From positions 49,104,001 through 49,168,000 of the forward strand of contig OZ024744.1 of the NCBI GenBank assembly GCA_964016885.1: DNA of 64,000 nt, in the 5' to 3' direction. The notes beneath the pieces are model-generated. The model worked only from the letters and a program-made list of their open reading frames with translations, did not search any database and was not told the DNA's origin. Position 1 is the first letter of the stretch, and every line of letters starts with the position of its first letter. This DNA is from Eledone cirrhosa (taxonomy: Eukaryota). Shown piece after piece: positions 3,401 to 64,000 of the stretch. The translations under genes and the position numbers were made by a program.

Positions 3401-3407
3401 TATATAT

Positions 3408-37716: not shown

Positions 37717-37760
37717 GTCATAGTTCTTTCGTCACACACTCTGTGACCTCTTCAGTGACT
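37717..37760 (-). ncRNA. Minimal hammerhead ribozyme (19348 design)
   Basis: Reverse complement of AGTCA-CTGAAGA-G-GTCACA..TGTGAC-GAAA-GAAC-TA-TGAC. Confidence 0.8.
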
Positions 37761-40700
37761 GGGGATTCCTTTCTTTGTTTTTGTGCCTCTCCTTTGTTCT
37801 GTCCTACGCCATTTTGTTTCTGTGTGTGTGTTGTGTGCTCAGTCTGCGCATGCGCCACATCCGGGTGTCTGTGTGTGTTTATGTTCATTTATTTATTTGT
37901 TTATTTACATGTTACTGGTTGGTTGTTTGTTCTATGTGTGTGTGTGTTTTCATTTTGTCCTTAATTGTAAGTTGTGATGTTGCTGTTCCACTCATATTTT
38001 CTATTTAATTTTGGTTGTAATTCTTTTATGTTTATTGCCTCTGTGATTTGTCTAAACATTGCGTCTTTTCTGTGTGTAGATTCTATTTTTATTTCTATGT
38101 TCTCTAATTTACCCTTGTGTTCTATTTTAGCATGTTGGTAGAGTACAGATGATTCTTTACTATCTTGAAGGTCTCGCCAGTGTTCATTTATCCGTTCTCT
38201 TACACTACGAGCTGTCTCACCTATGTACACTATATTTTTGTCTCTACATTGTCCTTCAGTACATCTTATGCTATACACTACATTTCTAGTTTTACAGTTA
38301 ATATGGGGGCTTATTTTACAGGTTATACATTTCTTATCTATACATGAGGGTCTTTGAAAAGGGTATGTCTTGCTAATAAGTGTTTTTACGGAGGTACCTG
38401 GTCGTTCTACTATCTTAATATTGAGTTTATGTTTATCTAGGGCCCTTCTAAATTTGTAAGCTAATTCACCTCTAGGGGTTGTATCGATGAACATTACACT
38501 CTGGTATTTATTGCTATCATACCATGAGTTTATTCTATTAGCCTTGTTCCTAGTTCTTTCTATTCTATTCCAAAAGTTGCTCCTATACAAGGGGCAAGTC
38601 CCATTTATGTCATTATTTACCATTTTTTCCCATTTGGTTCTGGCTCCTCTATACACTCTGATTTTATCTCTCTGATTGTAGCCAGAGAACTGCATACGGT
38701 GGATGAAGTGTTATATGTGTCTCTCTAGTTCTTCGGGGTTGCACATGCGGGACACATTTCTCATCACCCGTACCAAATCCGCAATCAGTATGTTGATTTT
38801 GGTATGGTCCGAAACGGCCGAGTTTCGGTGGATCAGATGTTTGGAAGTCATGGGTTTGGCATAATGGGAATGGAGGATTTGTTTTTTGTTATTAATGGTA
38901 TCTAACCAGAGCTCTGTGTCTAGTACAGGTAATCGATGGTTGGGGTGTTTACTTGGGTAGTCTATAGTAACTCTAATGCTCTGGTGGATGGAGTTAGCTA
39001 TTTGCTGGATGCTTTCCATTGTGTTTTTCTCTAGTTCCTGACTGTTCTCTAGTGGGGGTGTCTTAACTACGATGTTTATATAATCAACGTAGCGGGAGTA
39101 CATTATCAGGGTTAAGGGGTCTTCTAATTGTTCTTTAAGTTTAAGTTTAAGTCTACTGTCCCACCATACCATGAATAAGTTAGCTATGTCGCCTGCAATG
39201 CTAACACCAATGGCTGCTCCTTCCTCTTGGGCATATGTTTTTCCATTAAATTTGAACATATGTTCCTTAAGGATTAGTTTTATGCTGGCCCCTACCGCAT
39301 GTGCAATCATTTTCTTCAGTTCATCGTGGTTTTCGGGTGTCCGTATGGCTCTGGTCCACCCGTTCCATCTATCTGTGTGGGTTTTCTTGGCCATTGAGGT
39401 AATGGTAGGTGGTCTGCCTCTTGCTGGTCTTGTAGGGCACAGGTTGCTAAGGTCATATGTGTCTAGGTAATTATTACTATAGGTAAGTTTAAGTAGGAGT
39501 CCCAGCTCACTGGTATCAATCCCACGGAACTCAACATTGCTCTCACTGATCATTTCTACGCATTTCTCCACAGCAAAATCCACGTCAATAGATGGATACA
39601 GGGACACAACATCCATACTACCTATTATGCAGCTTGTTAGGTCCCTAGATCGGTTACTCTCGCCGATTCTGCTGAGGAGGTCCTCCGTGCTGTCACATAC
39701 ATCTGGGGACATTTCAATGATGGGTATGATCAGGGAGAGGAAGTAGGACAGTCTGTAGTTACTAGCAATGTTAGCTCCACAGACTGGCCGTGTTGGTGGT
39801 CCCGCGACAGGGTCACTGCCCGTTTTATGGTCTTGTCGAAGCCCATACAACGCCGGCACGTCATTGTTCCAGGCCTGGAAGTTGTTGGCAGTCCTTTTGT
39901 TGGGCTGCATTATATTCGTCCACATCACCATATGGGTATTGAGGGCTTTTTCTCTATCCTCATGCTCCTGTGGTGTTTCCTCTCTTGTGTTAGTGATGTG
40001 GGGTTGCATTGCCTGGATGTAGTTTGGCAGGCTGTCAACCGACATTCTGCCAGACTTGTCTGTTGGAAAGCATGCTATCTCTCCATTACGCGAGCTGCAT
40101 GAGCTTACGCAAGCCATTTGCAGATTTTTCTCCCAGTTGCTGGGCCTCCATTCTATTATGCTTCTTGCTATACTGTTCTATAATATTTCTAAGTTCGGAT
40201 CTAGCTATACTAAATTGTGCTTCTGTTTGTTCATCGACCTGCGACGGCAATTGCGTGCGTTTGTTAAATGGTAAAGTCGTGACGTGGACTCGTCGCAGGT
40301 CGAACGATTTATCGGAGGGATTATAAAAAGTAGAGTTCCAGGCTGCTGCTTTATGTGTACTAGTGCTACTGTTATTGTTAGTTGTGTTGTTTCTATTTCT
40401 ATTTCCACCAACAGCCTCATGGTTGTTTCTATGTCTCTCATAATTACTCCTGTCTCTTTCCACTGGCTCAATGTTGTTATCTACCCTATTTTGTGTGTCT
40501 GTGTGTTCGTCTTGGTTATTCTCTTTGTCCTTAGTCTCCCATCTCCTTTTCCTTTTAATCCTATTACTTTCTCTTATTTCTCTGATTTCTGTGCTACTGT
40601 CATTACTTGTTTTCTGTGTCTGTGTGTTTGTTAAGATTGTGGTGGTGGTGAGAGGCATTGAATGTGTGCGTGTTGTTGTTGTTGATGTGTGCTGTTGTTG

Positions 40701-41360
40701 ATGTGTGTTGTTGTTGTCTCCGTGTGTGTTATTATTGTTGTGTGTGTTATTGTTGTTTGTGTCTGCGTGTCTGTTGTTGTTGTTTCTGGGTATGTTATTA
40801 TTGTTGTTGGTGTGTGTGTGTTGTTGTTATTGTTGTTTGTGTCTGTGTGTCTGTTGTTGTTGGGATGTGTGTGCGTATATTGTTACTTTTGTTTTTGTTT
40901 TTGTTTTTGAGGCTCCAGCGTAGTTTTGTAAATGATTTTTCTAATTCTGACAGACAACTAATCATATTTACCTTCTTGAATGTCGCAAATTTCGGTGGTA
41001 GACGTAATACAGATAACTCATCGTCATCTATTATCGTGTTGCCGTATATATTTGTGTTGTTGTTGTTGTTGTTGTTGAACAGAGGCAATAAACATAAAAG
41101 AATTACAACCAAAATTAAATAAAAAATATGAGTGGAACAGCAACATCACAACTTACAATTAAGGACAAAATGAAAACACACACACACATAGAACAAACAA
41201 CCAACCAGTAATATGTAAATAAACAAATAAATAAATGAACATAAACACACACAGACACCCGGATGTGGCGCATGCGCAGACTGAGCACACAACACACACA
41301 GAAACAAAATGGCGTAGGACAGAACAAAGGAGAGGCACAAAAACAAAGAAAGGAATCCCC

Positions 41361-41404
41361 AGTCACTGAAGAGGTCACAGAGTGTGTGACGAAAGAACTA
41401 TGAC
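41361..41404 (+). ncRNA. Minimal hammerhead ribozyme (19348 design); mutated copies at ~41787-41826(-), 41891-41934(+), 42522-42566(+)
   Basis: AGTCACTGAAGAGGTCACAGAGTGTGTGACGAAAGAACTATGAC; other copies have GAAA>AAAA or CTGA>CTGT. Confidence 0.8.
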
Positions 41405-41542
41405 AATATATAAACAACTATCTGGTTGTGGAACCAACCAACCAACCAGAAATTTATAAATTTATAAATTTATTATAATAAATTGAAGTGAAAGCAACTG
41501 GTGCGTGTGTTTCTTATTGGCAACATGACCCTCCCAAAGTAT

Positions 41543-41595
<53 letters not shown>

Positions 41596-42716
41596 TGTAT
41601 ATATAATTTGTTTTTTAATTTGTTTTGTAAGATATCTTATCTGGAAACGTGTGTTGAAACAGATATTGTTATACTTTGGGAGGGTCATGCTGCCAATAAG
41701 AAGACATTCACCTGTTGGTTTTAACTTCAATTTATTATAAGTTTCTGGTTGGTTGGTTCGATAACCAGAAGGTTGTTTATATATTTTCAAAGCTCTTTTG
41801 TCACGCATCCTGTGACCTCCTCAGTGCCTAGGTTTTATAAAAACAAGATGGTGTAGGACAGAACAAAGGAGAGACACAAAATAAAAACCTAGTCACTGAG
41901 GAGATCACAGAATGTGTGACAAAAGAACTTTGACAATATATAAACAACCTTCCAGGTATCAAACCAACCAACCAGAAACTTAAAGTAAATTGAAGTGAAA
42001 ACCAACATGTGCATGTGTTTTTACTGGCAGCATGACCCTCCCAAAGTATAACAATATCTGTTTCAACACACGTTTCCAGATAAGATATCTTACAAAACAA
42101 ATTAAAAAACAAATTATATATACATATTTATATATATATATTTCGTTTCTGAATTTGTTTAGCAAGATTCTTTATCTGAAATCGTGTGTTGAAACCGATA
42201 TTGTTATACTTTGGGAGGGTCATGTTGCCAATTACAGAGGCAATAAACATAAAAGAATTACAACCAAAATTAAATAGAAAATATTAGTGGAACAGCAACA
42301 TCACAACTTACAATTAAGGACAAAATGAAAACACACACACACATAGAACAAGCAACCAACAAATAACATGTAAATAAATAAACAAATAGATAAATGAACA
42401 CAAACACACACAGACACCCGGATGTGGCGCATGCGCAAACTGAGCACACAACACACATACAGAAACAAAATGGCGTAGGACAGAAGAAAGGAAAGGCACA
42501 GAAACAAAGAAAGGAATCCCCAGTCACTGTAGAGGTCACAGAGTGTGTGACGAAAGGACTATGACTATATATAAACAACTATCTGGTTGTGGAACCAACC
42601 AACCAACCAGAAATTTGTAGATTTGTAAATTTATAAATTTATAAATATATAATAAATTGAAGTGAAAGCAACTGGTGCGTGTGTTTCTTATTGGCAACAT
42701 GACCCTCCCAAAGTAT

Positions 42717-42764
<48 letters not shown>

Positions 42765-42879: not shown

Positions 42880-43680
42880 TGTTGACAGGGGCGATTGTCA
42901 ACAACAGGTGGTGGAGCTCTCACAAGAATTAGAATAGAATCGATAGCATTTAGCAATCGATAGCATTTATCAAGGAAGTAGCTTTAGAAAAAAACAAAAC
43001 TGAAAAGGAACTGGTAGCTAAAGTAGAAGAGGGACTTAGGAATGGAGTACAGCTAATGTGCTAGCGGCTAGAACGGCACAAGACCAGTTCTTCAACGTGA
43101 AACACGAAGGTTGTATTGTCAGAAGTAGAACACGTGCTCTAAGAAATGAGGGAGCCAAAGCTGTGATATGGAACGGCCCCGATAGGTAGCCGTTCACCTT
43201 GTCCCTTGAGCAGATGTTGCTGCTGTGCATTGCAGCAATCCAGCCCCTGAACACGGGTCCGAAGCCTGCCACCTCGAGCACCGTATCCAGGTAACGATGG
43301 TCAACCCTATCGAAAGCCTTAGACTGATCCAAGTTGATCAGGGCCCCACCGAAGCCGGGTTTACACCCTACCCTCTCTATGATGTATCGCATGAGGTGGA
43401 GGTTGTCGTGTATGGACCTGGTCGGGATTGCACATGTCTGCGCTTCTCCCACCAGGTTTTCGACGACAAGCGCCAGCCTCTTTGCCAACACCTTAGCCAA
43501 AATCTGTAACTCTGTGTTGAGCAGAGTTATGGACCGGAAGTTGCCTATGTCATCCCCCTTGTTCTCGTCCTTCCTGACTAACGTGATTACGCCTTTGGTC
43601 ACAGAACTGGGAATTCTCCCGTTCTGCTGCCAGTTGCATTAGATCGCTTTCAGGAAACCGGAGAAAAAGTCCGGGGCATT
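42880..43680. mobile_element. Two convergent Tx1 ORF2 fragments (42880-43164 +, 43163-43680 -)
   Basis: Plus part matches 52978-53246; minus part matches 53575-54090; both outer ends abut TATC repeats. Confidence 0.88.
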
Positions 43681-44712: not shown

Positions 44713-44829
44713 AACTATAATCTAGCTGTCGTCTGTTCGACAGCGTAGACGTAATTCACTTCGCGCAGAAGCTTTGTTCCAATTTATTGCGAACATTTTG
44801 TAAGTTTAATTTTAATTTTGATACTATTG

Positions 44830-44920
44830 TGTAGCTTGACCCCCCCGTCTGAACTGTCAGGCGGTGGGTCAGCTCATCTTCGCCCCTCCCAGGGGTGAAA
44901 AACCTGTTTTTAAAAATTTT
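44830..44920 (+). promoter_or_regulatory. Conserved two-hairpin leader element upstream of Tx1 ORF1 (also 50081-50170, 55960-56050)
   Basis: Same layout in three diverged families: TTGACCC...GGGTCA long stem followed by TTCGCCCCT..AGGGGYGAA stem and TTTAAAAA; function unknown. Confidence 0.6.
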
Positions 44921-44950
44921 GTGGCATAAAATTTCAATCGTCTGGCAGAA

Positions 44951-46846
44951 ATGTTAAACGAAGCTAACGAAAATAGTGGTGGGGGGACAGCGGTAAGAGT
45001 TGTAAGCTCGCACGCTTTAGTCCCCCCTTCCTTCCCAACTAACGTCATAGAGAAAGAAAGAAAAAATAAAATGAAAACAGACGAATGTGCGGAGAAAAAT
45101 GACGAAAACACAAATCTGGAGATTGTGTCCAACAACAAAAAAAATTTGAAAGAATTGCATGACAATATTAATACCACAAACAAAGAAACAACAAACACAA
45201 AAATAACATTTGAAAACAACATCATAACAGAAAGCAAAACAGACGACAAAGTCAACACCAATAATATCTCATTTGCACAAACAACAAAGAAATCTTTAAC
45301 ATATATACCTGAAAATATTTCAGATGTGGCACAAAGAATAAAAAACGCCAAACAATACATAACTCAAGGGGAAAATGGAACCTTATCGGTAAAAATGCCC
45401 CAAGAACTCACCAAAGATATTGAAAGTCAGACGGTCGTTTTGCACACCATCAAGATCTAAAAAAAAACTCAACAACCAACACAAGCAGAAATTAAAGCAG
45501 TACTTACAGAAGTACTTAATGAAGCCACTTTCATAAGAAGAGACAGGCTGTATGGAAGCCTAGCCATTATTATGAAGAACGAATCGGCGGCAAAAAAATA
45601 TGCTTTGTCGCCGATTCGTTCGACAAATTTTACCTTTTATCCATCTTATATGGGTAAAAGAACTCAGCGCATATGGCTGGATGCGATGATGCAAGATGTG
45701 GACTACTGCTGGCTCATAGCTGGCTTCATCGATCCAGCGAATGACAACGTGATTTCCATTGGGAAAACCACAGGCAATGCGTTCAGTGGAACAGGTATAG
45801 AACTTGTAGTGCAAATGAAGCCTGAACGCATTGCCCAAATACCCGACAGAATCCTATTAGAGGGCCACGGGTATATAAACATTAGCGTGGAGGGGAGAAA
45901 GCCGTCCTGTCAAATCTGTGCAGGCAGAGGGCACCTGAAAGCGGCTTGTCCACAACTCAACAAGAAGAAAACCCTGCTACCAACACCAGCTCCACCACCA
46001 CCACAACAGATAAACAAACAACAAAACTCAGTCCCACCCAACCCGTCCCTCAGTAAAACTACACCACCACCACAGCACAAACAGACACAACACATTAACC
46101 AAAAACAAAACACAGTCCCACCCAACCCCTCACTCAATAAAACAACACAACCACCGCAGCCACAACAGACAACACAGTCTAACATAGTGACATCCATCTC
46201 CCCCACAAAGAAAACCAACACGGAAACATTACCAGCAAACATACCTCTTCCCTCCAACACTGAAGATAACCCAACGAATTCGGAGGAAGAAACGGAGTCC
46301 TTCAGACAGATTAAAAGGAAAAAAAGAAAACATGTGCAAAACACACAAAGCCAAACAGCCCCTACCCAAATGTCAACACAATCCAACAAAACACAAAACA
46401 CCCCTCCAGCAACAAACAAAACCAAACCTGCCCCTCCCCTCTTCGAAACACTCACACCATCCGAAAAAAAGACATTACACTATACTTACATCAACAGAAA
46501 CAATAATAAATTAAATGAACTCATAAACAATAACCCTTCGGTACAAACCGAAGGGGTAAACTTTGTTTCTTCAGAAAACTACCCACATTTAAAATTAATA
46601 AAGATTCCAATGAACCTCTACCAAAAACTAAAAAAGGATTTTAAGGAGGACGTAGGACCACCCTCTGTCAAACCCATAAACCGCGTCCTCCTAAAAAGCT
46701 TTCCCCCTCCCCTTCCCAACACAACTCCAAACACCCCAACCCCACCACACACTGACGACCCCACACCACCACAATACACCCCTTCACCCAACACCCCCGA
46801 CCCCATGGAAGTCGTGCGACCCGAACCCCGTGAAGCAGAAAGGTGA
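44951..46846 (+). pseudogene. ORF1 (gag-like, CCHC zinc knuckle) of family A
   Basis: Two ORF pieces joined at an A-run; homologous to 50217-52128. Confidence 0.85.
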
Positions 46847-49800
46847 GTCTCTACACTCTCCTTTGGCTTTGCCGCCCACATGGATGTGTTAAGAGTAGGA
46901 TGTTTGAATGCACGTGGCCTGGGCTCAACTTGGAAGCAAGCAAAGCTTCTAAATGACCTCAGGTCACGTGGTATAAATGTAATGGTTATCTGTGAGACTC
47001 GGATCAGCGTCGTGCGGCAGCTGGCCCCTACCTTCGATGACTTTGAGGTGCACGCATCTCTCTGTCAACCTGGAGGTGGGGGTGGGGTTGTCGTACTGCT
47101 GGAAAAACACCTGGGTCTCGCCGTACAGGTTGTTCACTCGGACCCGGAAGGTCGTTTGTTGATGCTAGACGTTGGCAGTAGTGGAGGTGCGGCCTTGAGA
47201 CTGGTCGCCGTCTACTCCACTTTCGGAGCTGAACGACCCGACTTCTTCCAGCGTCTAGAGACTTTTCTGGGAACGTCGCGTTCCCTGCTTCTAGCGGGGG
47301 ACTGGAATGACATCCTAGATGCACGTTGGGACTATGCAGGAGCATGTCCTAATAGAGGGGGGTGTAACAGCCTCAAGGGGTTACTCGACCGTTTTAACTT
47401 GGTCGATAGATATCGACTAGATTTTCCAACTGTGCCAACCTGGACTTGGACGAACCACAGTGGTCAATCTAGATCGTACTTACATAGATTCTTAGTTAGA
47501 AGTAAGGATAGGGACGAAGATGTGGCCAGAGTGCTGGCATCGAGGACGGCCTTGGGCCAGTTTTTCGATGCAAAGCACGAAGGCTGCGTCATTCGAAGTA
47601 AAATACGTGCTCTAGGTAATGAGGAGGCCAAAGCCATTGGCTGGGCCCGCGTGACAGAAGCTAAGAGTGGAAATCGATCCACCATCCGGTCTTTGCAAGA
47701 CGAGGATGGACGGGTGATCCGGGAGCCTAAGCAGATGTGCGAGGCCTTTCAAAGGCACTTTGCCCGATTGTTCGGGGGAGGCGGGTGTCCGGGCGGGGAC
47801 GTGGATTTCGGTCCATACCTCGACGGCCTGCAGCGTCTCTCGAGCGAAGAGGCAGAATCCTGCGAGGGACCAATCTCGGCTGATGAGATCGAGGATGCGC
47901 TGAGCCAATGCAGCAAACGCAAATCTCCAGGTCTCGATGGTATACCTTACGAACTTTATTTGGCAATGCCGGTCTTCTTCTCCGAACTCCTCAAAGCAGT
48001 CTACTGCAATTGGCAGCAGAACGGGAGAATTCCTTGTTCTGTAGCCAAGGGCGTAGTCTCGCTGGTGAGGAAGGACGAGAACAAGGGGGATAGTATAAAT
48101 AATTTTCGGCCCATAACCCTGCTAAACACAGAGTTAAAGATTTTGGCGAAGGTGTTAGCAAAAAGGTTGGCGCTTGTCGTGGCTAGCCTGGTGGGAGATG
48201 CGCAGACATGTGCTATCCCATCCAGGTCCATTCACGACAACCTCCACCTCATGCGATACATCATAGAGAGGGTGGCAACAAACCCGGCTTCGGTGAGGCC
48301 CTGATCAACTTGGATCAGTCTAAGGCGTTCGATAGGGTCGACCATGGTTACCTGGATGCGGTGCTAGCGGCGGCTGGGTTCGGTCCTGTTTTCAGAGGCT
48401 GGATCACTGCCTTACATAGCAACCACATCTGTTCTAGGATCAAGGTGAACGGCTACCTTTCGAAGCCGTTCGAAATCACACGATCCATTCGACAGGGGTG
48501 CCCTCTTTCCTCCCTTCTGTACGTATTGACTCTCGAACCTTTACTGAGGAAGTTGCAGGGTATCCCCCTGGAACCAGGATTGAGCAAAGCAGTGTCGGCC
48601 TACGCCGATGAGGTAACAGTAATGGTATCGACCGACTCGGAGATCGAGGCGATCGGCACCTTACTGGAGGAATACGAAAGGTTGTCAGGAGAAAAACTGA
48701 ACCGGGAAAAATCCATCGGGCTGCAACTCGGAACGTGGAGAGGCAGACCGATGCCTCCCGACGGTGTCGCCGGACACTGGACGGAGGTCCCGGTGAAGTT
48801 GCTTGGGGTCTGGTTTGGACCGGACCTCCAGGTGGAAAAGAACTGGGGCGAGGTTACGAGCAAGGTGTTTGCACTGACCCAGAAATGGGCCAAGTGTAAG
48901 CTGTCCCTGAAAGGTCGGGCGGAGGTGGCGAACATTTACATAGCGTCCGTCACCTACTACCGCCTGACTGTCGTGCCTTGCCCTAAGGAAACACTCACCA
49001 CCATGGAACGCATGGTCTTTCAATTTCTTTGGAAAAGGCGCCCTCCTATGGTGAGAAGATCCATCTGCTGCCAACAACCTTCGAAAGGGGAGCTGGGGAT
49101 GCCGTGGTTGATGATGCGTAGGCACGCATTAAGGCTACGGCATCTACAGGTATTCCTCACTGGTCAACCGGTATGGGCTCCGTTCGTGAGACGAGCCTTT
49201 CCGAGACTCGTCTCGCTCACCGAGTTGCAGTCCTGGGTCAAGCAAAGATCCGGAAAACTGGGCGACTGGCACACTGAGTGTGCCCAGGCGCTCAGGGCTC
49301 TCTGGCAAGCGGACCCGGCCATCGGTGGAGAATCCACCTCGTCATTCTATAGAGGGCTGGTGGCTAGCAGGAGCGATGACACCCTTGGAGAGTCACTGGA
49401 CATGGAAGAGGACGAACTGGCCAGCCTGTTCGGTAGGACTTTCGGCCCGGGACCAATGGACAACTTCCAGAAGTCACTGGCCTGGCAGTGCTACCGGGGG
49501 GCTCTACCCGTTCGAGAAAAGCTCTACAAACACGGGCGCCCGGGCAGGGATCCCTCGAAAAAGATTTGACCTAGATGCGTGCGTCACGAAGAAACCGTTG
49601 CGCACGCATTGGTGCAATGTCCGGGCGTGGCTGATCTGTGGGGCTACGCCGAACAACTGCTGTCGCGGGTGGCGCCGATTCGATTGACCGCCGAGTCCGT
49701 GATGACAATCAAGCCGCCTCCCCTCTTCACAAAGGAAGAAAAGGCGGTTTTTCTGTGCGTAATAGCCATGTTGAAAGAGGTTGTTTGGTGGACACGATTG

Positions 49801-50039
49801 AAAGGTCTGAGGTCAGGCAACTTCCTCTCTGGCCATAGTCTGGTCTACTTCTTCCGATATAACTTCGGAAGAAGGGTAAGAATGGAGAGAGAGGTGCTTG
49901 GCCACAGGCAGTTTTATGAAAGGTGGGTGATAGTGGCGAGAATGGCTCGTGTAAATGGGCCTTCTCTGTATACTATCCTGTAGGTAAAGAAGTGAAGGAG
50001 AGGGGAGCACCTCCTCCATGTGCTCCCCGTTTATTTATG

Positions 50040-53000
50040 TAAGAAAAAACGTGAGTTTTTATTTAAATGTTATATTATTGTGTAACTTGACCCCCCGTCA
50101 TGACTTTCAAGTGGTGGGTCAACTCATTTTCGCCCCTACAGGGGCGAAATATCCATTTAAAAAATATTTTTCTCCATCGAATATTGGAAAAAATATTGTA
50201 AAAGTTTGATTACGTTATGAACGCTGCGTCCAACGTTAATGGTGGTGGAGAGGCGGTAAGACTACAAAGCTCGCAGTCAACAACGTCTTCTTCACTAGAT
50301 ACTATAGAGATGGAAAGACGAAATGAAAATGTAAAAACGAATTCATATCCAAACAACACAAATGACCCCAAACAGTTCAATGACAACAAAAATAACAGCA
50401 ACACCAATAATGATGATAAAAGCAACAATGATAACAACAACAAAGAAAAAAATAAAGACAACACCAATAACACCAGCATCAAAGACAACAACAACACCAA
50501 GGAAAATACGAATAATACCAACATCGGTGACAATAAGAATAACAACAATAATAACAACAATAATGACAACACCAACACGGATTCCACAAAGAAACCAAAA
50601 ATCTACTTTGCAGAGAAAGTTAAAAAAAAGGAGGAATTGATATATCTTGACATAACAAATGCTGAACAACTTTTAAAGGACGCTAGGAGATATGTCACTT
50701 TCGAAAAAAATGGTGCTTTCAGCATCAATTCTCCGGTAGAAATTCGCAAGGAAACTGCTCTCAAAACGATAGTTTTTAGGACAGTTTCCAATTCTACCCG
50801 AAAACCAGCCCAATTGTCACAGAAAGAAATTGAACTGGTTTTCAAAAATTCAATGAATGATATTGCATTCATTCAAAGAAGCAAACTTTTTGGGAGTATT
50901 TCGGTACTCATGAAGGATCAATTGACGGCCCAAAATTACTCTGTGTCGCCAATTGTATCCAACCTGTACACCTTTTTCCCTACATACATGGGAAAAAGGA
51001 CACAAAAGATCAGAATCACGAGTGTCACACCAAAGGTGAACATATGGTGGATACTGTGCAGCTTCATCAATTTTGACGAAGACAGAATACTGTCAGTAGA
51101 AAAGTCCCCCAGAGATGTATTCAATGGGACTAGCATTGAAGTTCTGGTGCAAATGAGCCCAGAGCGAATAGCTATGATCCCACAACGTGTACTCCTGGGC
51201 GGACTCACCTACATAAACTTTTCGGTTGAGGGTAGGCGGCCTTCATGTTACCATTGCTTTAGCAGGGGTCACCTGAGAGCTTCCTGTCCTAAATTAATGA
51301 ATAAAAAAAAGGCTCTTCTGCCGACACCCATCAAAACAACACAACCACCAACACCACCACAACAACAACAACACCAACACACAACAATAACCACAACAAA
51401 CACAGTCCCACCCAACCCCACTCCACCTAAAACCACTGCAAAATCACATACAGACACAACAGCTCCCCAAGACATACCCCTCCCCAATCACACAGACGAT
51501 ACAACAGATGAGGCTATCTCGCCATCACCCAGTGAAGACGAGGGAGAACCCCATCGCTCGAAAAGAAAGAAAAGACATCACAAAAGCAAAAACCAGCAAA
51601 CACTGCCACAAACATACAACCACCAACACAAACAACAAAAACATCACAAACAAAACCCCCACCTCCTGAAAACAAAATACCTACAACAAAACGAAAGCAC
51701 ACACAAGAACTACAGACAAAAACAAACACAACACAAGAAAATTACACTTACACTTACATAAACACTGAAAACAAAACACTAATGGAGACCATCACGAACG
51801 ACCCTTCGGTGAAAACCGAAGGGAAAACTTTCGCCCTCTCTATTAAAAATAGCAAAAAACTGAACCTAAAACTGATTAGGGTCCCTATACAAACTTATAG
51901 GTCCCTAAAAGAAACATTTGAGAAGGATGTGGGGAATTCCTGCGTGAAACCACTCAACCGCGTCCTTCTCAAATGTCTCCCCACCCCAGACACCCCCATC
52001 CCACCAGACCCCACCCCACCAAACATCTCCGCCCCACCCCGCCGGAAACCACCATCCATCCAGACAACCCCTCCAACACCCCCATGGAAATCGTGCGGCC
52101 TGGTCCACAGGAGACGAAGGGTGAGTGATCTCTTTTCCTCTTTTAACTTTTCAGCACCAACATGGCCAATATAAGAGTTGGATGTGTGAACGTACGCGGC
52201 CTGGGGATGCCCTGGAAACAGGGCAAACTCTTAAACGACCTCAGGTCGCACAGTATGGATGTAGTAGCCATTTGCGAGTCCAGGATCCACAGCGAGCGAC
52301 AGCTGGCCCCCATCTTCGATGACTTTGAGATCTACGCATCTCTCTGTCAACCTGGGGGTGGGGGCGGAGTTACCGTTTTGCTGCGGAAACACCTGGGCTT
52401 CGTAACACAGACGGTACATCTGGACCCGGAGGGTCGACTGGTGGTCCTAGACGTTGACGGTAGTGAAGGTGGAGCCTTCAGGCTGGTGGCCGCATATGCC
52501 CCATCCGAGACACCGCGGCCAGACTTCTTCAAACGTCTAGAGACTTTTCTGGGAACGTCCCGCTCCTTGCTTTTAGTGGGGGACTGGAATGGAATCCTAG
52601 ATGCACGTTGGGACTATGTGGGAGCATGTCCCGATAAAGGGGGGGGGGGTGTAACAGCCTCAAACAGTTAATCGACCGATTTGACCTGGCCGATAGATAT
52701 CGACTAGATTTTCCGACTGCGCCACTGTGGACGTGGAGTAATCGTAGCGGAACATCTAGATTGTACCTAGATAGGGTTCTAGTTAGAAATAAGGATATGG
52801 ACATGTTAAGCTGTCCACAAATGTTCATGGTTGCCTATTCAGATCACAAACTAGTGACCTGCATGGCCAACCTTGATAGAACCCATAGACAAGGACCCAG
52901 CTACTGGAAGCTGAACTTGTCGTTACCGACAAGCAAAGCCTACAGTAGACGGATTAGCACTTTAGTTAAACAGCACTTGACAGGGGCCATTGTCAACAAC

Positions 53001-55870
53001 AAATGGTGGTACTCTCTCAAGAGGGAAGTTAGATTAGACTCGATAGTTTTTAGTAAAGAATTAGCGTTAGATAGAAATAGAACCGAGATGGAACTGGTAG
53101 ATAAAGTAGAAGAGGCAATTAGAAGTGGCAACGTAGCCAGCGTGCTAGCAACGAGAACGGCCTTGGAGCAGTTCTTCGACGCAAAGCACGAGGGCTCGTT
53201 GTCAGAAGCAAAATACGTGCTCTGGGAAACAAGGGAGCCAAAGCTGTTAGCTGGGCCCGAGTGACGGAGGCAAAAAGTGGCAACAAGTCCACGATTCGGT
53301 CTTTGAAGGACCAAAACGGACGCGTGATACATGAGCCGAAGCAGATGTGTGCGACTTTTCAGTGGCACTTTGCTCAACTGTTCGGGGGGAACGGCACGAC
53401 GGGAGAGGCTATGGATTTCGGTCCATATCTCGACGGCCTACCGCAACTCTCGGACAGCGAGGCAAAGTTCTGCGAAAAGCCGATTTCAGCCACTGAGATA
53501 GGGGACGCGCTGAGCCAATGCGGCAAACGCAAATCTCCAGGTCTCGACGGTCTACCCTACGAATTTTACGTAGCAATGCCGGACTTATTCTCCGGTCTCC
53601 TGGAAGCGGTCTAGTGCAACTGGCAACAGAACGGGAGAATTCCCAGTTCTGTAACCGGGGGCGTGGTCACACTAATCAGGAAGGACGAGAATAAGGGGGA
53701 TGACATAGGCAAATTCCGGCCCATAACTCTGCTCAACACAGAGTTACAGATTTTGGCTAAGGTGTTGGCAAAGAGGCTGGCGCTTGTCGTCGAGAACCTG
53801 GTGGGAGAAGCGCAGACATGCGCAATCCCGACCAGGTCCATACACGACAACCTCCACCTCATGCGATACATCATAGAGAGGGTTGGGTGTAAACCCGGCT
53901 TCGGTGGGGCCCTGATCAACTTGAATCAGTCTAAGGCTTTCGATAGGGTTGACCATCGTTACCTGGATGCGGTGCTCGAGGTGGCAGGCTTCGGACCCGT
54001 GTTCAGGGGCTGGATTGCTGCAATGCACAACAGCAACATCTGCTCAAGGGTCAAGGTGAACGGCTACCTCTCGGAGCCGTTCCATATTACGCGATCCATT
54101 CGACAGGGATGCCCTCTCTCCTCCCTTCTGTACGTACTGACTCACGAGCCACTACTGCGGAAGTTGGAGCTATTGCAGGGCATCCCTCTGGGACCGGGAC
54201 TGCGAAAAGCGGCGTCGGCCTACGCCGACGACGTGACAGTAATGGTGTCGAGCGCCTCGCAAATCGAGGAAGTCGCCACTTTACTGAAGGAATACGAAAG
54301 TTTCACAGGAGCGAAACTGAACCGGGACAAGGCCATCGGTTTGCAACTTGGATCGTGGAGAGGCAAACCGATGACTTCCGATGGCGTCGTCGGACGCTGG
54401 ACGGAAGGACCGGTAAAGCTGCTCGGGGTCTGGTTTGGTCCGGACCTCCAGGTGGAGAAGAACTGGAACGAAGTGACGGCCAAGGTGTTTGCACTCACCC
54501 AGAAGTGGGCCGAGTGCAAACTATCCTTGAAATATCGAGCGGAGGTGGCGAACACTTTTATAGCGTCCGCCATCTACTACCGCTTCACCGTCGTGCCTTG
54601 TCCACCCAAAACGCTCGCCAAAATGGAACGCGCGCTCTTCCGATTCCTTTGGAAGAATGGGGCTCCTTTGGTGAGAAGATCCATCTGCTGCCAACACCCT
54701 TCTAACGGAGGGCTGGGGAGGCCGTGGTTGACGATGCGCAAACACGCGCTCAGGCTGCGGCATCTCTACGTATTCCTCACCGGACAACCAGTGTGGGCCC
54801 CGTTCGTGAGGCGAGCCTTCCCACGACTCGTCTCGCTGACCGAGCTGCAGTCCTGGGTCAAGCAAAGACCGAGGAAAATGGGCGACTGGCACATCGAATG
54901 TGCTCAGGCGCTGACAGCCCTCTGGCAGGCGGACCTAGCGATCAGTGGAGACTCCACTTCGTCATTCTATAGAGGGTTGATCCGCAGCAAGTGCGACGAC
55001 GCGCTCGGTGAAACTCTAGGCGCAGAGGAAGATGAAATGGCCAGTCTGTTCGGTAGGACCTTCCGCCCGGGACCGATGGACAACTTACAAAAGTCACTGG
55101 CCTAGCAGTGCTACCGAGGAGCTCTACCAGTTCGAGACAAGCTCTACAGACATGGGCGCCCGGGCAGGGACCCTACAAAAAAGATCTGTCCGAGGTGCGT
55201 GCGAGACGAAGAAACCGTCGCGCACGCATTCATACACTGCCCGGGCGTCACTGACCTGTGGGGCTATGTAGAACGACTATCGTCGCGGGTGGGACCAATC
55301 CAGTTGACCACCGAGTCCATTGTCATGATCAAACCGCCACCCTCCTTCAAAAACGAAGGAGAGGCGGTTTTCCGTTGTGTGATAGCTATGGTGAAAGAGG
55401 TTGTATGGTGGACAAGGTTGAAAGGGCTGAGGTCAGACACCTTTTTCTCCGGCCAACAACTGATTCTTTTTTTCAAATACCACTTTGGAAGAAGAATCAG
55501 GGTGGAGAGAGAGGTGCTGTACCCCAGCAAGTTTTATGAAAGGTGGGTGAAAGTGGCGAGAATGGCCCGAGTGAATGGGCCTTCTCTCTATATCAGCCTG
55601 TAGGTTGAGGAAAAGGAGGAGGAGAGGAAAGGAGTACAAACTCTTCGTACTCCTGGAGATGAGGGTTGCACATTTTTTCGGGGGTATGTGTTACCCATAT
55701 AAACTGTCTCCCCCTATTGGGGAAAATCGACTAACTTTTTAAATTACATTTGTGATAACATTTTACACGTTTTTATTGTATGTAAACTTCTCCCTTCGTA
55801 TTTGTCCCCTTCTTTTGTGCCCCTGTGGCTAATAAAGAAACATATCTATCTATCTATCTATCTATTTATC
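50040..55870 (+). mobile_element. Tx1/L1-clade LINE family B, full length, decayed
   Basis: ORF1 50217-~52128 (CYHCFSRGHLRASC); ORF2 52162-55603 (CVNVRGL, ICESR, YSDHKL, AYADDV, CPRC..HC); 3' UTR, AATAAA, (TATC)n tail. Confidence 0.96.
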
Positions 55871-58800
55871 TGCCTGATGCATGGAACATCGCCGGTAAGC
55901 TTTTTTGTTAATTTCTATGCAAAAAAACCGAACCAATTGTTTGAAAAAACATAATATTTTGTAGATTAACCTCCAAGCTGAATTGTCAGCTGGGTGGTAA
56001 TCCCATTTTTCGCACCTTTAGGGGCGAAAACTTAATTTAAAAATTGTTTTAAAATATCAAATTTTGCCAACTATAAAACATGAATAGCTCGGAAAGAACG
56101 CTAGAGAACGTTGACAGAGAGAAGAGAGGTAAAGAGGCAGATATTAACGTTATATCTGCTTCTGCTACTATGGACGTCGCCATAGATACGACTGTCAACA
56201 AAGAGAAAAAATATTACCACTTGAAGATTTTAAAATTTCTACTGTCGAAGCGGGGAAAAATAACAATAACACACAGGAAAACACAGGAATTGAACCTATT
56301 AACATACATACACATGAAAAAGACAACATCAACAACTCCATAGATACATCTACACATAAAGTTTCACCTCGTCAAGAAATTGAGATTTCCAACACCAAGA
56401 CTAACAACGATAACAACAACAACAACAACAGCAATACCACACAAAAAAAATGTCTTTCACTGAAACTGAACAAAAAACAAGATTTTATAAATCTTGAAAT
56501 CTCCAATGCAAGAGATATGCTCCAGCAAGGGAGAAAATTTATAACTTTCGAAGACAAGGGTGGGTTTAGAATTAACTCACCCCTCGAAATAAAAGAAGAG
56601 ACAGTTCGAAGGTCAGTGACCTTTAGGACTGTCTCCAACACAACGAGAAAGCCGATATATGTTAATCAAGCAGATATAGAAGCCACTTTCAAGGAGACTC
56701 TAGCAAATATTGACTTTCTCCAATGAGGAAAACAATACGGAAGTGTTTCTGTACTGTTTAAAAGCGAGGCACTCGCCCAAAAACATTCTGTGACACCAAT
56801 GGTGTCAAAAGCATTCACCTTTTTCCCTACGTATATAGGATAAAGGACAAAAAAAAAATATATATATATATATATTACCAAAACATTAACATCTGGTGGA
56901 TCTTGGCTGGCTTCGTAGAGCCAGAGATTGATATGATTCTTTCGATACGAAAGTCTATTAGACAAAGGTGGGCGGGTACTGATTTGGAGATTCTGATTCA
57001 AATGAGGCTGGAGAGACAACAACAAAATAAACATTACGGTGGAGGGTCGAAAACTTCATTGCTTTCGCTGTGGTAGCACATCACACCTAAAGGCCTCCTG
57101 TCCTTCACAAACACACCACAACATCATTAAAAAAACACTATTACCAACACCAACACCAAAACAACCACCACCACAAGTACAACAACAGACGAAACGAGCA
57201 AACACACCAAAACAAACAGCCACTCAACCAACAACAACAGAAAAAACACAGACAACATCCCTGAAGAACACAGCCCCACCCCATCAAACACTACCACAAA
57301 CACACACACCAAAATACCACCACCACACAACATAACCCTACCCCACACTCCTGACGATGATTATTCATCGACAGATGAGGCTGCTTCTCCTTCTTTAAGT
57401 GAAGAAGGAGAGCCTCGGAAATCTAAAAAACAAAAAAGAGACACCACAAAACTCCCAAAACTCCAATCACCAACACCAACACACAACCACAGACACAAAC
57501 AACAACACAAACAACACCACAGTCAAACATCCCTCTACCAGAAAAATCAACACCAACACCACCCCAAACACAAGCACCCACCATAAAAAGAAAACTCCCG
57601 GACGAACAACAAACTAAAACAACACAACAAAAACACAAACAACAATACGCATACATCAACACAAACAACAAGAGTTTGATGGAGGTCATCTCCCAAAACC
57701 CCAAGGTGGAGATGGAGGGCAAAACTTTCGTCAAAGCAGAATCGTCTCCACACCTAAAACTAATAAGGGTTTCGATAGAAACCTATCAGAAATTGAAAAA
57801 AAAACAGTTTTCGCAGGATGTTGCAATCCCTGTCAAAAACCTATTAACCGCGTCCTATTAAAATGTTTCCCCACCCCACCCAACACCCCCAGAACTGAAA
57901 TGGAGATTGAACAACCCGATCTCCACCAACATGGCTAGTTTACGAGTTGGAAGCGTGAATGTGCGTGGCCTAGGGATGCCCTGGAAACAGGGCCAACTTT
58001 TAAACGATCTTAGGTCACACGGTATGGATGTGATAGCCATCACCAAGTCCAGGATCCACAACAGGCAGCAACTAACCCCCATCTTCGACGACTTTGAGAT
58101 CTACGCATCTCTCTGTCAGCCAGGAGGTGGAGGGGGAGTGGCTGTCATGTTTCGGAAGAACCTGGACGTCGAAGTACAGCAAGTACACTTGGACCCGGAG
58201 GGTATACTGGTAGTCCTAGACGTGAAAAGTATTGGAGGTGGAGTCTTCAGACTGGTGGCCGTTTATGCACCGACCGGGCAATCGCAATCACGGCCAGACT
58301 TCTTTAAGCATCTAGAGTCTTTTCTGGGAACATCTCGCTCCTTACTTTTAGTGGGGGACTGGAATGTTATCCTAGATGCACGATGGGACTATGTGGGAGC
58401 ATGTCCTAGTAGAGGGGGGTGCAAAAGCCTCAAAACTTTAATCGGCCAATTCCAACTGGCCGATAGGTATCGACTGGACTTCTCGACTGCACCACAGTGG
58501 ACGTGAGCAAACCGCAGGGGGACATCTATATCGTATTTAGATAGGTTCTTCATTAGAGAAAGGGACAACGATATGTTAAGCTGTCCACGAATGCACATGG
58601 TTGCCTATTCAGATCACAAATTAGTCGTCTGCTTAGTCAACCGTGATAGAATACATAGACAAGGACCCAGATACTGGAAGCTGAACGTCTCGTTGCCGGC
58701 ACGTAAAGCTTACAGTGAACGGATAAGTAGACTAGTCAAGCAACAGTTAACGGGAGCCATCGTCAACAATAGATGGTGGTACTCTCTCAAGAAAGCAATT

Positions 58801-60250
58801 AGAGTAGAATCGATAGGGTTTAGCAGAGAGTTAGCCTTAGAGAAAAACAAAATAGAAAGAGAACTAGTAGCCAAGGTAGAGGAGGCACTTAGAAGTGGCA
58901 ACGCGGCTAGAGTGTTAGCGTCAAGAACGGCACTAGACCAGTTCTTTGACGAAGGCTGCGTGGTCAGAAGCAAAACACGTGCTCTAGGAAACGAAGGAGC
59001 AAAGCTGTCAGCTGGGCCCGATTGGCAGAGGCAAAAAGTGACAACAAGTCCACGATTCGGTCTTTGAAAGACCAAAACGGACACATGCGACTTGAGCCGA
59101 AGCAAATGTGCGCGGCCTTTCAGCAGCACTTTGCGCGACTGTTTGAGCAGAATGATGGTGAGCCGAACTGGGTAATGGACTTTAGTTTATACCTCGACGG
59201 CCTGCCGCGTCTCTCAAACACGGACACCGAGTTCTGTGAAAGACCGATCACGGACACTGAGATATGGGACCGCTGCGGGGAATGCAAGTCACCAGGTCTA
59301 GATGGTCTACCATATGAGTTTTACATAGGCATGCCGGACTTGTCCTCTGGCATCCTCGAAGCCGTCTACTGCAATTGGCAGCAGAACGGTAGAATTCCCA
59401 GTTCTGCAGGCAAGAGCGTAGTAATGCTGATCAGGAAAGACGAGAAAAAGGGGGACGAGATTAACAACTTCAGGCCCATAACTCTGCTCAACACAGAGTT
59501 AAAGATTTTGGCCAAGGTGCTAGCGACGAGGTTGGCACTTGTCGTCAAGAACCTGGTAGGGAAAGTGCAAACGTGTGCAATCCCGACCAGGTCCATAATG
59601 ACAACCTCCAATTCATGCGATACATCATAGAGAGGGTGGGTAGTAAACCCGGCTTCGGTGGGGCTCTGATCAATTTGGATCAGTCTAAGGCATTCGATAG
59701 GGTCGACCATCGATACTTGGAAGCGGTTCTCAAGGCGGCCGGTTTCAGTCCCGTTTTCAGAGGCTGGATTGAGGCGATGCACACCAGCATCTGCTCGAGG
59801 GTCAAGGTGAACGGCTACCTATCGGAGCCATTCGCCATCACGCATTCCATTCGACAGGGATGCCCTCTCTCTCCTCCATTCTGTATGTATTGACTCTAGA
59901 GCCATTACTGCGGAAATTGGAGCTATTGCAGGGCATCCCTCTAGAACCGGGACTGCGCAAAGCGGCGTCGGCTTATGCTGACAACGTGACGGTAATAGAG
60001 TCGAGCACCTCGGAAATCAGGTTGATCGGCAACTTACTGAAAGAATACGAAACGCTGACGGGAGCAAAACTAAATCCGGACAAGTCTGTCGGTTTGCAAC
60101 TCAGTATGTGGAGAGGAAAACCGATGACGTCCAACAGCGTCGTTGGATGCTGGACGGACGGACAGGTGAAATTACTCGGGTTTGGTTCGGTCCAGACCTC
60201 CAGGTGGAGAAAAACTGGAATGAGGTCACGGCCAAGGTGTTTGCGCTCAC
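55871..60250 (+). mobile_element. Tx1/L1-clade LINE family C, 3' end replaced by satellite
   Basis: ORF1 remnants 56080-57900 (CFRCGSTSHLKASC); ORF2 from ATG ~57930 to the RT region; breaks at GTGTTTGCGCTCAC. Confidence 0.93.
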
Positions 60251-63200
60251 AGTAGTTTCATAGATATATATAGGTAGAACATAGTCACAGTAGTTTCATA
60301 GATATATAGGTAGAACATAGTCACAGTAGTTTCATAGATATATAGGTAGAACATAGTCACAGTAGTTTCATAGATATATATAGGTAGAACATAGTCACAG
60401 TAGTTTCATAGATATATATAGGTAGAACATAGTCACAGTAGTTTCATAGATATATATAGGTAGAACATAGTCACAGTAGTTTCATAGATATATATAGGTA
60501 GACCATAGTCACAGTAGTTTCATAGATATATAGTAGAACATAGTCACAGTAGTTTCATATATATATAGGTAGAACATAGTCACAGTAGTTTCATAGGTAT
60601 ATAGGTAGAACATAGTCACAGTAGTTTCATATATATATATAGGTAGAACATAGTCACAGTAGTTTCATAGATATATAGTAGAACATAGTCACAGTAGTTT
60701 CATAGATATATATATATTAGAACATAGTCACAGTAGTTTCATAGATATATATATATAGTAGAACATAGTCACAGTAGTTTCATAGATATATATAGGTAGA
60801 ACATAGTCACAGTAGTTTCATAGATATATATAGGTAGAACATAGTCACAGTAGTTTCATATATATATAGGTAGAACATAGTCACAGTAGTTTCATAGATA
60901 TATATAGGTAGAACATAGTCACAGTAGTTTCATAGATATATAGGTAGAACATTGTCACAGTAGTTTCATAGATATATATAGGTAGAACATAGTCACAGTA
61001 GTTTCATAGATATATAGTAGAACATAGTCACAGTAGTTTCATAGATATATAGGTAGAACATAGTCACAGTAGTTTCATAGATATACAGGTAGAACATAGT
61101 CACAGTAGTTTCATAGATATATAGTAGAACATAGTCACAGTAGTTTCATAGATATATAGGTAGAACATAGTCACAGTAGTTTCATAGATGTATAGGTAGA
61201 ACATAGTCACAGTAGTTTCATATATATATAGGTAGAACATAGTCACAGCAGTTTCATAGATATATATATAGGTAGAACATAGTCACAGTAGTTTCATAGA
61301 TATATATAGGTAGAACATAGTCACAGTAGTTTCATATATATATAGGTAGAACATAGTCACAGTAGTTTCATAGATATATATATAGTAGAACATAGTGACA
61401 GTAGTTTCATAGATATATATAGGTAGAACATAGTCACAGTAGTTTCATAGATATATAGGTAGAACATAGTCACAGTAGTTTCATACATATATAGGTAGAA
61501 CATAGTCACAGTAGTTTCATAGATATATATAGGTAGAACATAGTCACAGTAGTTTCATAGATATATAGGTAGAACATAGTCACAGTAGTTTCATAGATAT
61601 ATATATATAGTAGAACATAGTCACAGTAGTTTCATAGATATATAGTAGAACATAGTCACAGTAGTTTCATAGATATATATAGGTAGAACATAGTCACAGT
61701 AGTTTCATAGATATATATAGGTAGAACATAGTCACAGTAGTTTCATAGATATATATAGTAGAACATAGTCACAGTAGTTTCATAGATATATATATAGTAG
61801 AACATAGTCACAGTAGTTTCATAGATATATATAGGTAGAACATATTCACAGTAGTTTCATAGATATATATAGGTAGAACATAGTCACAGTAGTTTCATAG
61901 ATATATATAGGTAGAACATAGTCACAGTAGTTTCATAGATATATAGGTAGAACATAGTCACAGTAGTTTCATAGATATATATATATAGTAGAACATAGTC
62001 ACAGTAGTTTCATAGATATATAGTAGAACATAGTCACAGTAGTTTCATAGATATATATAGGTAGAACATAGTCACAGTAGTTTCATAGATATATATAGGT
62101 AGAACATAGTCACAGTAGTTTCATAGATATATATAGTAGAACATAGTCACAGTAGTTTCATAGATATATATATAGTAAAACATAGTCACAGTAGTTTCAT
62201 AGATATATATAGGTAGAACATAGTCACAGTAGTTTCATATATATATAGGTAGAACATAGTCACAGTAGTTTCATATATATATAGGTAGAACATAGTCACA
62301 GCAGTTTCATAGATATATAGGTAGAACATAGTCACAGTAGTTTCATAGATATATATAGGTAGAACATAGTCACAGTAGTTTCATAGATATATATAGGTAG
62401 AACATAGTCACAGTAGTTTCATAGATATATAGGTAGAACATAGTCACAGTAGTTTCATATATATATAGGTAGAACATAGTCACAGTAGTTTCATAGATAT
62501 ATATAGGTAGAACATAGTCACAGTAGTTTCATAGATATATAGGTAGAACATAGTCACAGTAGTTTCATAGATATATAGGTAGAACATAGTCACAGTAGTT
62601 TCATAGATATATATAGGTAGAACATAGTCACAGTAGTTTCATAGATATATATAGGTAGAACATAGTCACAGTAGTTTCATAGATATATATAGGTAGAACA
62701 TAGTCACAGTAGTTTCATAGATATATATAGGTAGAACATAGTCACAGTAGTTTCATAGATATATAGGTAGAACATAGTCACAGTAGTTTCATATATATAT
62801 ATATAGGTAGAACATAGTCACAGTAATTTCATATATATATATAGGTAGAACATAGTCACAGTAGTTTCATATATATATATAGGTAGAACATAGTCATAGT
62901 AGTTTCATAGATATATAGGTAGAACATAGTCACAGTAGTTTCATAGATATATAGTAGAACATAGTCACAGTAGTTTCATATATATATAGGTAGAACATAG
63001 TCACAGTAGTTTCATAGGTATATAGGTAGAACATAGTCACAGTAGTTTCATATATATATATAGGTAGAACATAGTCACAGTAGTTTCATAGATATATAGT
63101 AGAACATAGTCACAGTAGTTTCATAGATATATATATAGTAGAACATAGTCACAGTAGTTTCATAGATATATATATATAGTAGAACATAGTCACAGTAGTT

Positions 63201-64000
63201 TCATAGATATATATAGGTAGAACATAGTCACAGTAGTTTCATAGATATATATAGGTAGAACATAGTCACAGTAGTTTCATATATATATATAGGTAGAACA
63301 TAGTCACAGTAGTTTCATAGATATATATAGGTAGAACATAGTCACAGTAGTTTCATAGATATATATAGGTAGAACATAGTCACAGTAGTTTCATATATAT
63401 AAAGGTAGAACATAGTCACAGTAGTTTCATAGATATATAGGTAGAACATAGTCACAGTAGTTTCATAGATATATAGTAGAACATAGTCACAGTAGTTTCA
63501 TAGATATATAGGTAGAACATAGTCACAGTAGTTTCATAGATATATAGGTAGAACATAGTCACAGTAGTTTCATAGATATATATATTGGTAGAACATAGTC
63601 ACAGTAGTTTCATATATATATATATAGGTAGAACATAGTCACAGTAGTTTCATAGATATATAGGTAGAACATAGTCACAGTAGTTTCATAGATATATATA
63701 GGTAGAACATAGTCACAGTAGTTTCGTAGATATATATAGGTAGAACATAGTCACAGTAGTTTCATAGATATATAGGTAGAACATAGTCACAGTAGTTTCA
63801 TAGATATATATAGGGAGAACATAGTCACAGTAGTTTCATAGATATATATAGTAGAACATAGTCACAGTAGTTTCATAGATATATATATAGTAGAACATAG
63901 TCACAGTAGTTTCATAGATATATAGGTAGAACATAGTCACAGTAGTTTCATATATATATATATAGGTAGAACATAGTCACAGTAGTTTCATATATATATA
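60247..64000. repeat. Satellite/minisatellite, ~35-41-bp unit TCACAGTAGTTTCATAG(AT)nAGGTAGAACATAG, roughly 100 copies, runs off window
   Basis: Direct reading; unit length varies through the (AT)n core and G/GG variant. Confidence 0.99.

Follow-up and report, generated by a model that had tools for sequence, protein, structure and literature searches.

The stretch of DNA analysed here, called the window below, comprises 64,000 nucleotides (nt) of Eledone cirrhosa (GenBank assembly GCA_964016885.1, contig OZ024744.1, positions 49,104,001 to 49,168,000 of the forward strand). It carries three retrotransposons of the long interspersed nuclear element (LINE) kind, one each of families named A, B and C, and ahead of the first open reading frame (ORF1) of each lies a copy of the same module, made of two predicted hairpins. 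The copies occupy 44830-44901 (A), 50081-50150 (B) and 55960-56030 (C), and the ORF1 ATGs follow at 44951, 50217 and 56080; a sequence-only reading of this DNA had put the module at these places, and they are confirmed. What might be the role of such a module? The features that bear on the question are given below, where donor, branch and acceptor stand for predicted splice signals and DPE for downstream promoter element.

44720..50026, plus strand: element of family A, beginning at 44720; ORF1 and ORF2 broken, 3' untranslated region (UTR) cut and fused to B
44747..44751, plus strand: DPE-like motif of A, AGACG, at +28..+32; AGATG or GGATG in other copies
44800..44805, plus strand: predicted donor of A, GTAAGT; GTGAGT in a subfamily
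44830..44877, plus strand: hairpin 1 of A; predicted branch A at 44839, predicted acceptor AG at 44859-44860, intron of 61 nt
44879..44899, plus strand: hairpin 2 of A, with a pyrimidine arm; second YAG with its AG at 44891-44892, for which the intron would be 93 nt
44951..46846, plus strand: ORF1 of A; stop at 45458-45460, CCHC knuckle
46880..49983, plus strand: ORF2 pieces of A; AP endonuclease, reverse transcriptase (RT)
50027..55839, plus strand: element of family B, truncated on the 5' side at about +56 and closing with AATAAAGAA ahead of the TCTA run
50051..50056, plus strand: predicted donor of B, GTGAGT; second candidate GTAAGA at 50039-50044
50081..50126, plus strand: hairpin 1 of B; predicted branch A at 50090, acceptor place at 50109-50110 (through a point change AA in this copy, whereas most other copies of B have AG), intron of 60 nt
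50129..50148, plus strand: hairpin 2 of B; second YAG, AG at 50140-50141
50217..51761, plus strand: ORF1 of B; RRM-like and CCHC features
52147..55603, plus strand: ORF2 pieces of B; endonuclease, RT, zf-RVT
55840..55870, plus strand: (TCTA)n run, forming the tail of B as well as the target of C
55875..55879, plus strand: motif at the DPE place of C, TGATG, a weaker fit; TGACG in most copies
55895..55900, plus strand: displaced predicted donor of C, GTAAGC
55960..56005, plus strand: hairpin 1 of C; predicted branch A at 55969, acceptor AG at 55988-55989, intron of 95 nt
56009..56028, plus strand: hairpin 2 of C; second YAG, AG at 56020-56021
56080..60255, plus strand: ORF1 and ORF2 pieces of C, truncated by a 38-bp satellite at 60247

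By Pfam, ORF2 holds AP endonuclease, RT and zf-RVT domains, and an ORF1 with a CCHC knuckle precedes it. The best solved structure for ORF2 is human L1 ORF2p (E 6e-114, against 2e-35 for R2); its nearest named proteins are 33-36% identical, and unnamed relatives reach 42-51%. The knuckle, CX2CX4HX4C, was present in all five ORF1 proteins tested, below the Pfam cut-off. Atlas look-alikes of ORF1 (0.90-0.92) carry zf-CCHC and ZCCHC3 RNA-binding domains, which is a lead only, and a homologue search with ORF1 gave no match. An upstream walk through stacked arrays, together with a second search pattern, added families D, E and F, and the module is thus known from six families, whose ORF1 cores are 37-61% identical to that of B. 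In a quick RT tree, which included no named Tx1 reference, the six families and one outside protein (P0001) formed one clade with an SH-aLRT support of 100. The genome holds many identical ORF1 copies, and the families are young and high in copy number. AP endonuclease, RT, zf-RVT, a CCHC ORF1, a multicopy-repeat target and tandem stacking are shared with Tx1-clade elements as described in the cited part of PMC4640811, while the target here, (TCTA)n, is different. These properties fit L1-group, Tx1-type elements specific for a (TCTA)n target.

A conserved RNA structure in the leader

Is the module conserved as an RNA structure? In the window, a pattern describing hairpin 2 matched only the three sites (B on both strands), and it found 0 matches in 100 shuffles. 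Over the 3.0-Gb genome it gave 408 forward and 411 reverse matches, 819 together, with 0 and 0 in the control, and a second pattern of this kind gave 782 strand matches with 2 in its control; as one locus may count twice among strand matches, the number of leader copies is stated as at least 800. The module lies within the 5' UTR, about 110 nt inside the element and not at its 5' end, and its hairpins, followed by an A/U-rich stretch, stand 40-70 nt ahead of the AUG. The trailing TTTAAAAA, which the sequence-only reading noted after each of the three copies, varies among other copies and families. Compared with shuffles, the folding z-scores on the plus strand are -6.1 (A), -5.6 (B) and -3.5 (C), and on the minus strand -3.4, -4.1 and -4.1, C folding equally well on the opposite strand. 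A scan of Rfam, proposed in the same reading, was run and gave no family matching the modules (0 at E up to 10 for the A leader and at E up to 5 for seven loci). A covariance model, applied to 80 distant metagenome loci, found nothing among them (best E 2.8) and scored family D weakly (E 0.1), and further families may exist. A contig from another organism's sequencing run spans the B leader region with 23 differing letters over about 500; given this contig, the range of the module may reach related species.

The paired stem changes listed by the sequence-only reading proved to be real compensatory changes in the hairpin alignments. For hairpin 1, examined in 17 natural copies of five families with D left out, 84% of the cells were paired, compared with 31-51% when partners were slid. 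Two-sided changes occurred in 15 cells (0/500 shuffles), and 2/500 shuffles attained the observed covariation score, but the number of pairs with a two-sided change, 5/15, was equalled by 66/500 shuffles; kinship among the copies inflates all tests of this kind. In hairpin 2, two pairs that are C-G and G-C in B and C became U-A and A-U in D, E and F, with G.U intermediates in family A. Its recurrent variants comprise 4 G.U, 2 A.C and 1 A.G cells, and the excess of G.U is a modest sign pointing to the sense RNA strand. The spacing between its arms varies from 4 to 8 nt. With six families and compensatory changes, the earlier idea of a conserved cis-acting RNA structure in a Tx1-like leader is supported.

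Two irregular copies were also seen. In one copy of family E (L197:1433-1498) the inner arm of hairpin 1 is inverted, a change that template switching at the hairpin would produce, and a D copy without the 3' arm of hairpin 2 is adjoined by a long foldback that contains TG/CA repeats (L153:3300-4200).

Splice-like signals around the hairpins

What was missed in the earlier reading is that the letters kept invariant in hairpin 1 belong to branch-point and acceptor motifs, and that a conserved donor lies upstream. The invariant pairs, columns 8-41, 10-39, 11-38, 19-30 and 20-29, comprise the T, A and C of the branch motif and the AG; the -3 place is C or T only, and its partner changes to match. 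The order is the same in the six families: DPE-like motif, GTRAG donor, YTRAC, YAG, hairpin 2 and AUG, where the YTRAC branch-point motif forms the foot of hairpin 1 and the YAG falls in its 3' arm. A YTRAY branch motif about 15-40 nt before a YAG is the consensus of U2-type introns. Counted from the predicted start, donors are at +78 to +82 (+48 in C), the A of the branch motif is at +120 (+121 in C, +125 in D), and the YAG ends at +139 to +141; the branch A is 14-21 nt ahead of the AG end in 6/6 families. The predicted introns measure 61, 60, 95, 60, 63 and 59 nt in the six families, the 95 nt being that of C. In folding, the acceptor AG is paired with a predicted probability of 0.96-1.0 in all six folds and the branch motif with 0.33-0.98.

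Each of the six family representatives carries the triad of donor, branch and acceptor, as do 73/92 sampled copies. The triad arose in 0.1-2.2% of dinucleotide shuffles per family, in 11/600 window tiles and in 0/6 reverse complements, rates which serve as a guide only and are not to be multiplied, since the criteria of the triad were set post hoc and the families are kin. Copy by copy, the donor was present in 20/22 of A, 31/39 of B (GTGAGT), 28/35 of C, 7/7 of E and 5/5 of F; 23/60 rows of D, and D in the tally of search-pattern halves given below, are left uncounted because a loose anchor also matched other sequence. The variants are in keeping with the degeneracy of splice sites: A has GTAAGT and GTGAGT, and C has GTAAGC, GTAAGA and GTAAGT. 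Between families, the spacers around the donor have identities of 0.47 and 0.50 compared with 0.41 and 0.46 after shuffling, which is near random, and the module has 0.61 compared with 0.43. Two families are instructive about spacing. In C the aligned place is without a donor, which lies instead 33 nt farther upstream at a site reading AGAAG in A and B, a shift whose direction is not fixed by the tree. In D hairpin 1 is shorter, and the distance from donor to AG is still 60 nt.

The motif layout and the covariation, together with the lack of spliced copies, are all read from sequence; from them we infer, as the most likely reading though with belief and doubt in equal measure, that the module is the 3' half of a short spliceosomal leader intron, which hairpin 1 would repress and whose splicing is predicted. 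In our first model of the intron the acceptor was in the hairpin-2 loop. A second pyrimidine tract with a YAG in hairpin 2 exists in A-D only, and for want of that AG in E and F this model was dropped as a general one.

Several points weigh against a leader intron, besides the post hoc criteria and the modest pair count of hairpin 1. The predicted length of 59-63 nt is shorter than all of the host introns examined, 17 predicted myosin introns with GT-AG signals and U-rich tracts, the shortest of 89 nt. The tract ahead of the hairpin-1 AG is weak (42-75% pyrimidine), and the second AG, which has a strong tract and would give a host-like intron of 91-93 nt, is missing from E and F. The fixed branch-to-AG spacing would also follow from the simple homology of hairpin 1. 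Upstream AUGs give no help, as none is common across families and splicing would remove no shared upstream ORF.

The spliced copies themselves are a further point on the same side. If the intron were spliced from RNA that returns to the genome, are precise spliced retrocopies to be found? The searches covered families A-D. Among at least 800 leader copies they found 0 for the hairpin-2 junction in A, B and C and 0 for the hairpin-1 junction in A, B, C and D, while a search for any exit from the D donor gave one point mutant and no spliced copy. The hairpin-2 search returned one match in unrelated sequence and one imprecise deletion. Both pattern halves occurred in 12/12 A and 25/32 B sampled copies and, for the hairpin-2 pattern, in 11/17 C copies, so a spliced rate like the 1.8% of human L1 would have shown. 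The internal deletions observed in leaders have ends other than GT and AG. Tight repression and no splicing fit the lack of spliced retrocopies equally. In contigs and reads of the sequencing runs X4, X1, X5, X6 and X13 there was no joint at the predicted splice sites among the 15 of 445 joints listed; X4, whose kind is not recorded, does not reach family A before position 44897 and was not used as evidence. L045 has a fusion at the hairpin-2 AG, related to the A-B fusion of the window at 49984-50027, which passes through a short shared sequence and is one base off a splice junction.

These results raise an alternative which we find unlikely, though less so than the other rivals: only the donor is real, as a U1 site that boosts the promoter or blocks early polyadenylation, and the hairpins are a separate signal for ribonucleoprotein (RNP) formation, packaging or translation, the look of a branch and an AG being a by-product. 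It would account for the lack of spliced copies in A-D, for an intron below host sizes and for the weak tract, and also for the conservation of hairpin 2, with its G.U intermediates, regardless of whether an AG is present. It does not account for invariant letters of hairpin 1 that fit the branch and acceptor consensus, or for a donor-to-AG distance that is unchanged in D despite the indel. Could the signals act in DNA instead? Promoter elements bound by transcription factors may merely resemble splice sites, with palindromes acting in DNA, and there is a precedent in human L1, where a RUNX3 site lies over the donor according to the cited part of PMC5860796. The rigid spacing from the start site and the good folding of both strands agree with it. 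Against it, the arms of hairpin 2 stand at variable distances (4 to 8 nt) and the donor of C has moved by 33 nt, while two-sided changes and G.U intermediates (4 G.U compared with 2 A.C) suit single-stranded RNA; we hold this explanation to be improbable.

Element 5' ends and a predicted internal promoter

Among the sampled leaders 147/154 were intact to +40, a count that describes copies reaching the leader, as many were located via hairpin 2 or ORF1. In family A, 19/21 copies begin at the same A, 27 nt ahead of RGAYG (AGACG, AGATG or GGATG). In B-F the DPE-like motif is at the first non-repeat base or within about 12 nt of it. The DPE of Drosophila LINEs has the same place and consensus as the motif of A in the cited parts of PMC1636488, PMC2377424 and PMC9073688, the first of which describes a promoter of initiator plus DPE in which an RGWCGTG-like motif occupies about +28 to +36 relative to the start. 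From the 5' ends and the DPE-like motif we infer an internal Pol II promoter in the leader, whose activity is predicted. In B-F its start (+1) would fall inside the TCTA run, and with the predicted start inside the (TCTA)n target in 5/6 families, the target repeat might complete the promoter.

Some details at the 5' ends are recorded here as observations of their own. Exactly 27 nt upstream of the motif there is an A in B and C, and it is one base off in D, E and F; if all families have the motif at +28, both the initiator and 5' homology for integration may come from the target repeat. The 5' junctions of family A have variable untemplated bases before the first A, with G in 4/19, as expected for a copied cap. 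A CWTCG motif is in register in all six families, 45-47 nt after the start of the DPE (e.g. 44759-44763), and is possibly a second DPE.

The sharp 5' ends about 110 nt upstream of the module, together with the DPE-like layout of family A, argue for an internal promoter and not for processing of read-through RNA, one of the ways in which the sequence-only reading had supposed that stacked elements are expressed. Stacking itself is common. Of 126 sampled 5' ends, 118 have a TCTA repeat no more than 45 nt away, and 65 stand directly after a sister element's tail; roughly half of the copies are unstacked, and the upstream stacked elements each end in AATAAA. Ribosome entry at the module, an idea of the sequence-only reading by which read-through transcripts of a stack would yield ORF1 protein, draws on these 65/126 ends and on the stable hairpins and the A/U-rich stretch before the AUG. 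Each element has its own predicted promoter, however, the AATAAA closes each upstream element, about half of the copies are unstacked, and the donor is left unexplained, so that we give internal entry little weight.

The leaders of R2, RTE and L1Tc carry 5' HDV-like ribozymes. This precedent and the stacked arrangement speak for a new self-cleaving ribozyme or processing site which would release the element from co-transcripts. The module is like those ribozymes in being a structured RNA in a LINE leader. It is unlike them in that the elements begin about 110 nt upstream, with no clustering of 5' ends at the module (147/154 intact), that it consists of two simple hairpins, by eye without a nested double pseudoknot or a conserved single-stranded core, and that Rfam gives no match, to hammerhead, twister and other small ribozymes included. 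On the same grounds of position, topology and Rfam, the earlier judgement that the fold is neither HDV-like nor hammerhead holds, and a ribozyme is the least probable of all the explanations considered.

Proposed mechanism and comparison with known systems

How would a hairpin-repressed leader intron work? Transcription would begin at +1 from the internal promoter, and U1 bound to the cap-near donor would raise the output. Hairpin 1 would cover the branch point and the acceptor and so keep part of the RNA unspliced, and this part would be the template copied into the genome, while the spliced share would serve as mRNA, as in Penelope. Hairpin 2, which stays closed in folding when the predicted intron is removed, would outlast splicing and in A-D mask the second pyrimidine tract and AG. 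It may be an additional RNP or translation signal, roles that the sequence-only reading had suggested for the module.

L1 elements show cis preference, and the leader-intron reading leaves the exclusion of spliced RNA from retrotransposition unexplained. Most simply, splicing might be nearly blocked in the germ line, or an intact hairpin 1 might be required for RNP formation. A stronger version, which we regard as doubtful, is a true splicing switch of a LINE: the intron would be locked by the hairpin, the spliced RNA translated and only the unspliced RNA reverse-transcribed, a division of mRNA and template like that of retroviruses. If true, it would break the L1 rule of cis preference. Then why does the question matter? 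In LINEs one and the same RNA is both translated and copied, and for this reason introns should be lost. Splice signals kept under a conserved hairpin, without spliced copies, make a 140-nt test case for intron retention by retroelements, a question that dates from the discovery of the Penelope intron. The RNA structure is also one absent from Rfam, and its families, being young and high in copy number, are suited to reporter and retrotransposition assays. Another role considered was an intron mimic that shields the element from HUSH-type silencing; it was rejected, as splice signals flanking a sequence gave no protection by themselves in the cited part of PMC8770142.

Penelope of Drosophila virilis is the nearest parallel. 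In the cited part of PMC2377424 it has an internal promoter with the DPE RGACGTGY and a leader intron of 75 bp, 46 bp after the start; the splice sites are conserved between diverged copies, deletion of the intron abolishes reporter protein, and most transcripts are spliced. The intron is retained in genomic copies (PMC2377424, PMC3846280). The elements here resemble it in a DPE-type promoter and a short leader intron, both predicted, kept in genomic copies. They differ in being AP-endonuclease LINEs, Penelope being a GIY-YIG element that replicates by a different route, and in having the predicted acceptor and branch point of a putative intron in a covarying hairpin.

Human L1 offers a second comparison. 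According to the cited part of PMC5860796, a conserved donor near +97 is rarely used, masking by RNA structure or protein has been suggested, and the acceptors are 500-900 nt away; about 1.8% of full-length copies are spliced (SpIREs) and are a dead end. Both are L1-group elements with a conserved donor in the leader. In the six families here the donor, branch and acceptor form a compact unit and no spliced copy was found (A-D), whereas the donor of L1 is explained in that source by the RUNX3 site. For TART, the cited part of PMC1636488 gives antisense introns of 53-104 nt with a size conserved in diverged subfamilies, and also lists introns for L1, Tad and kangaroo-1 transcripts. Short introns of conserved size, here predicted ones, are common to TART and the present elements, with the difference that those of TART are in antisense RNA and the signals here are in the sense-strand leader. 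In the literature searched, to which Repbase, supplements and subscription papers did not belong, no Tx1-type element is described as having a structured intron in its leader; the elements may be catalogued in those other sources.

Other features of the window

At 49984-50027 the 3' UTR of the A element is joined, without a tail, to the truncated B element. Family B is also represented by a 3' portion at 1-3407, with 93% identity to 52421-55865, and by an internal fragment in inverted orientation at 43163-43674. The satellite that truncates element C has a unit of 38 bp and about 100 copies over 60247-64000. Large inverted repeats at 17648-19551 and 37486-42761 are Penelope-like elements in inverted arrangement, with a GIY-YIG ORF at 18157-18780 (minus strand) and a weak RT ORF at 38711-40117 (minus strand). 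In all families the 3' tails of the carriers have a stem-like pattern G-T-C-C-C...G-T-G-G-C, followed by AATAAA(T)AGAA and a TCTA run (e.g. 55790-55839). Each family has its own version of this pattern, which is a candidate recognition stem for ORF2p.

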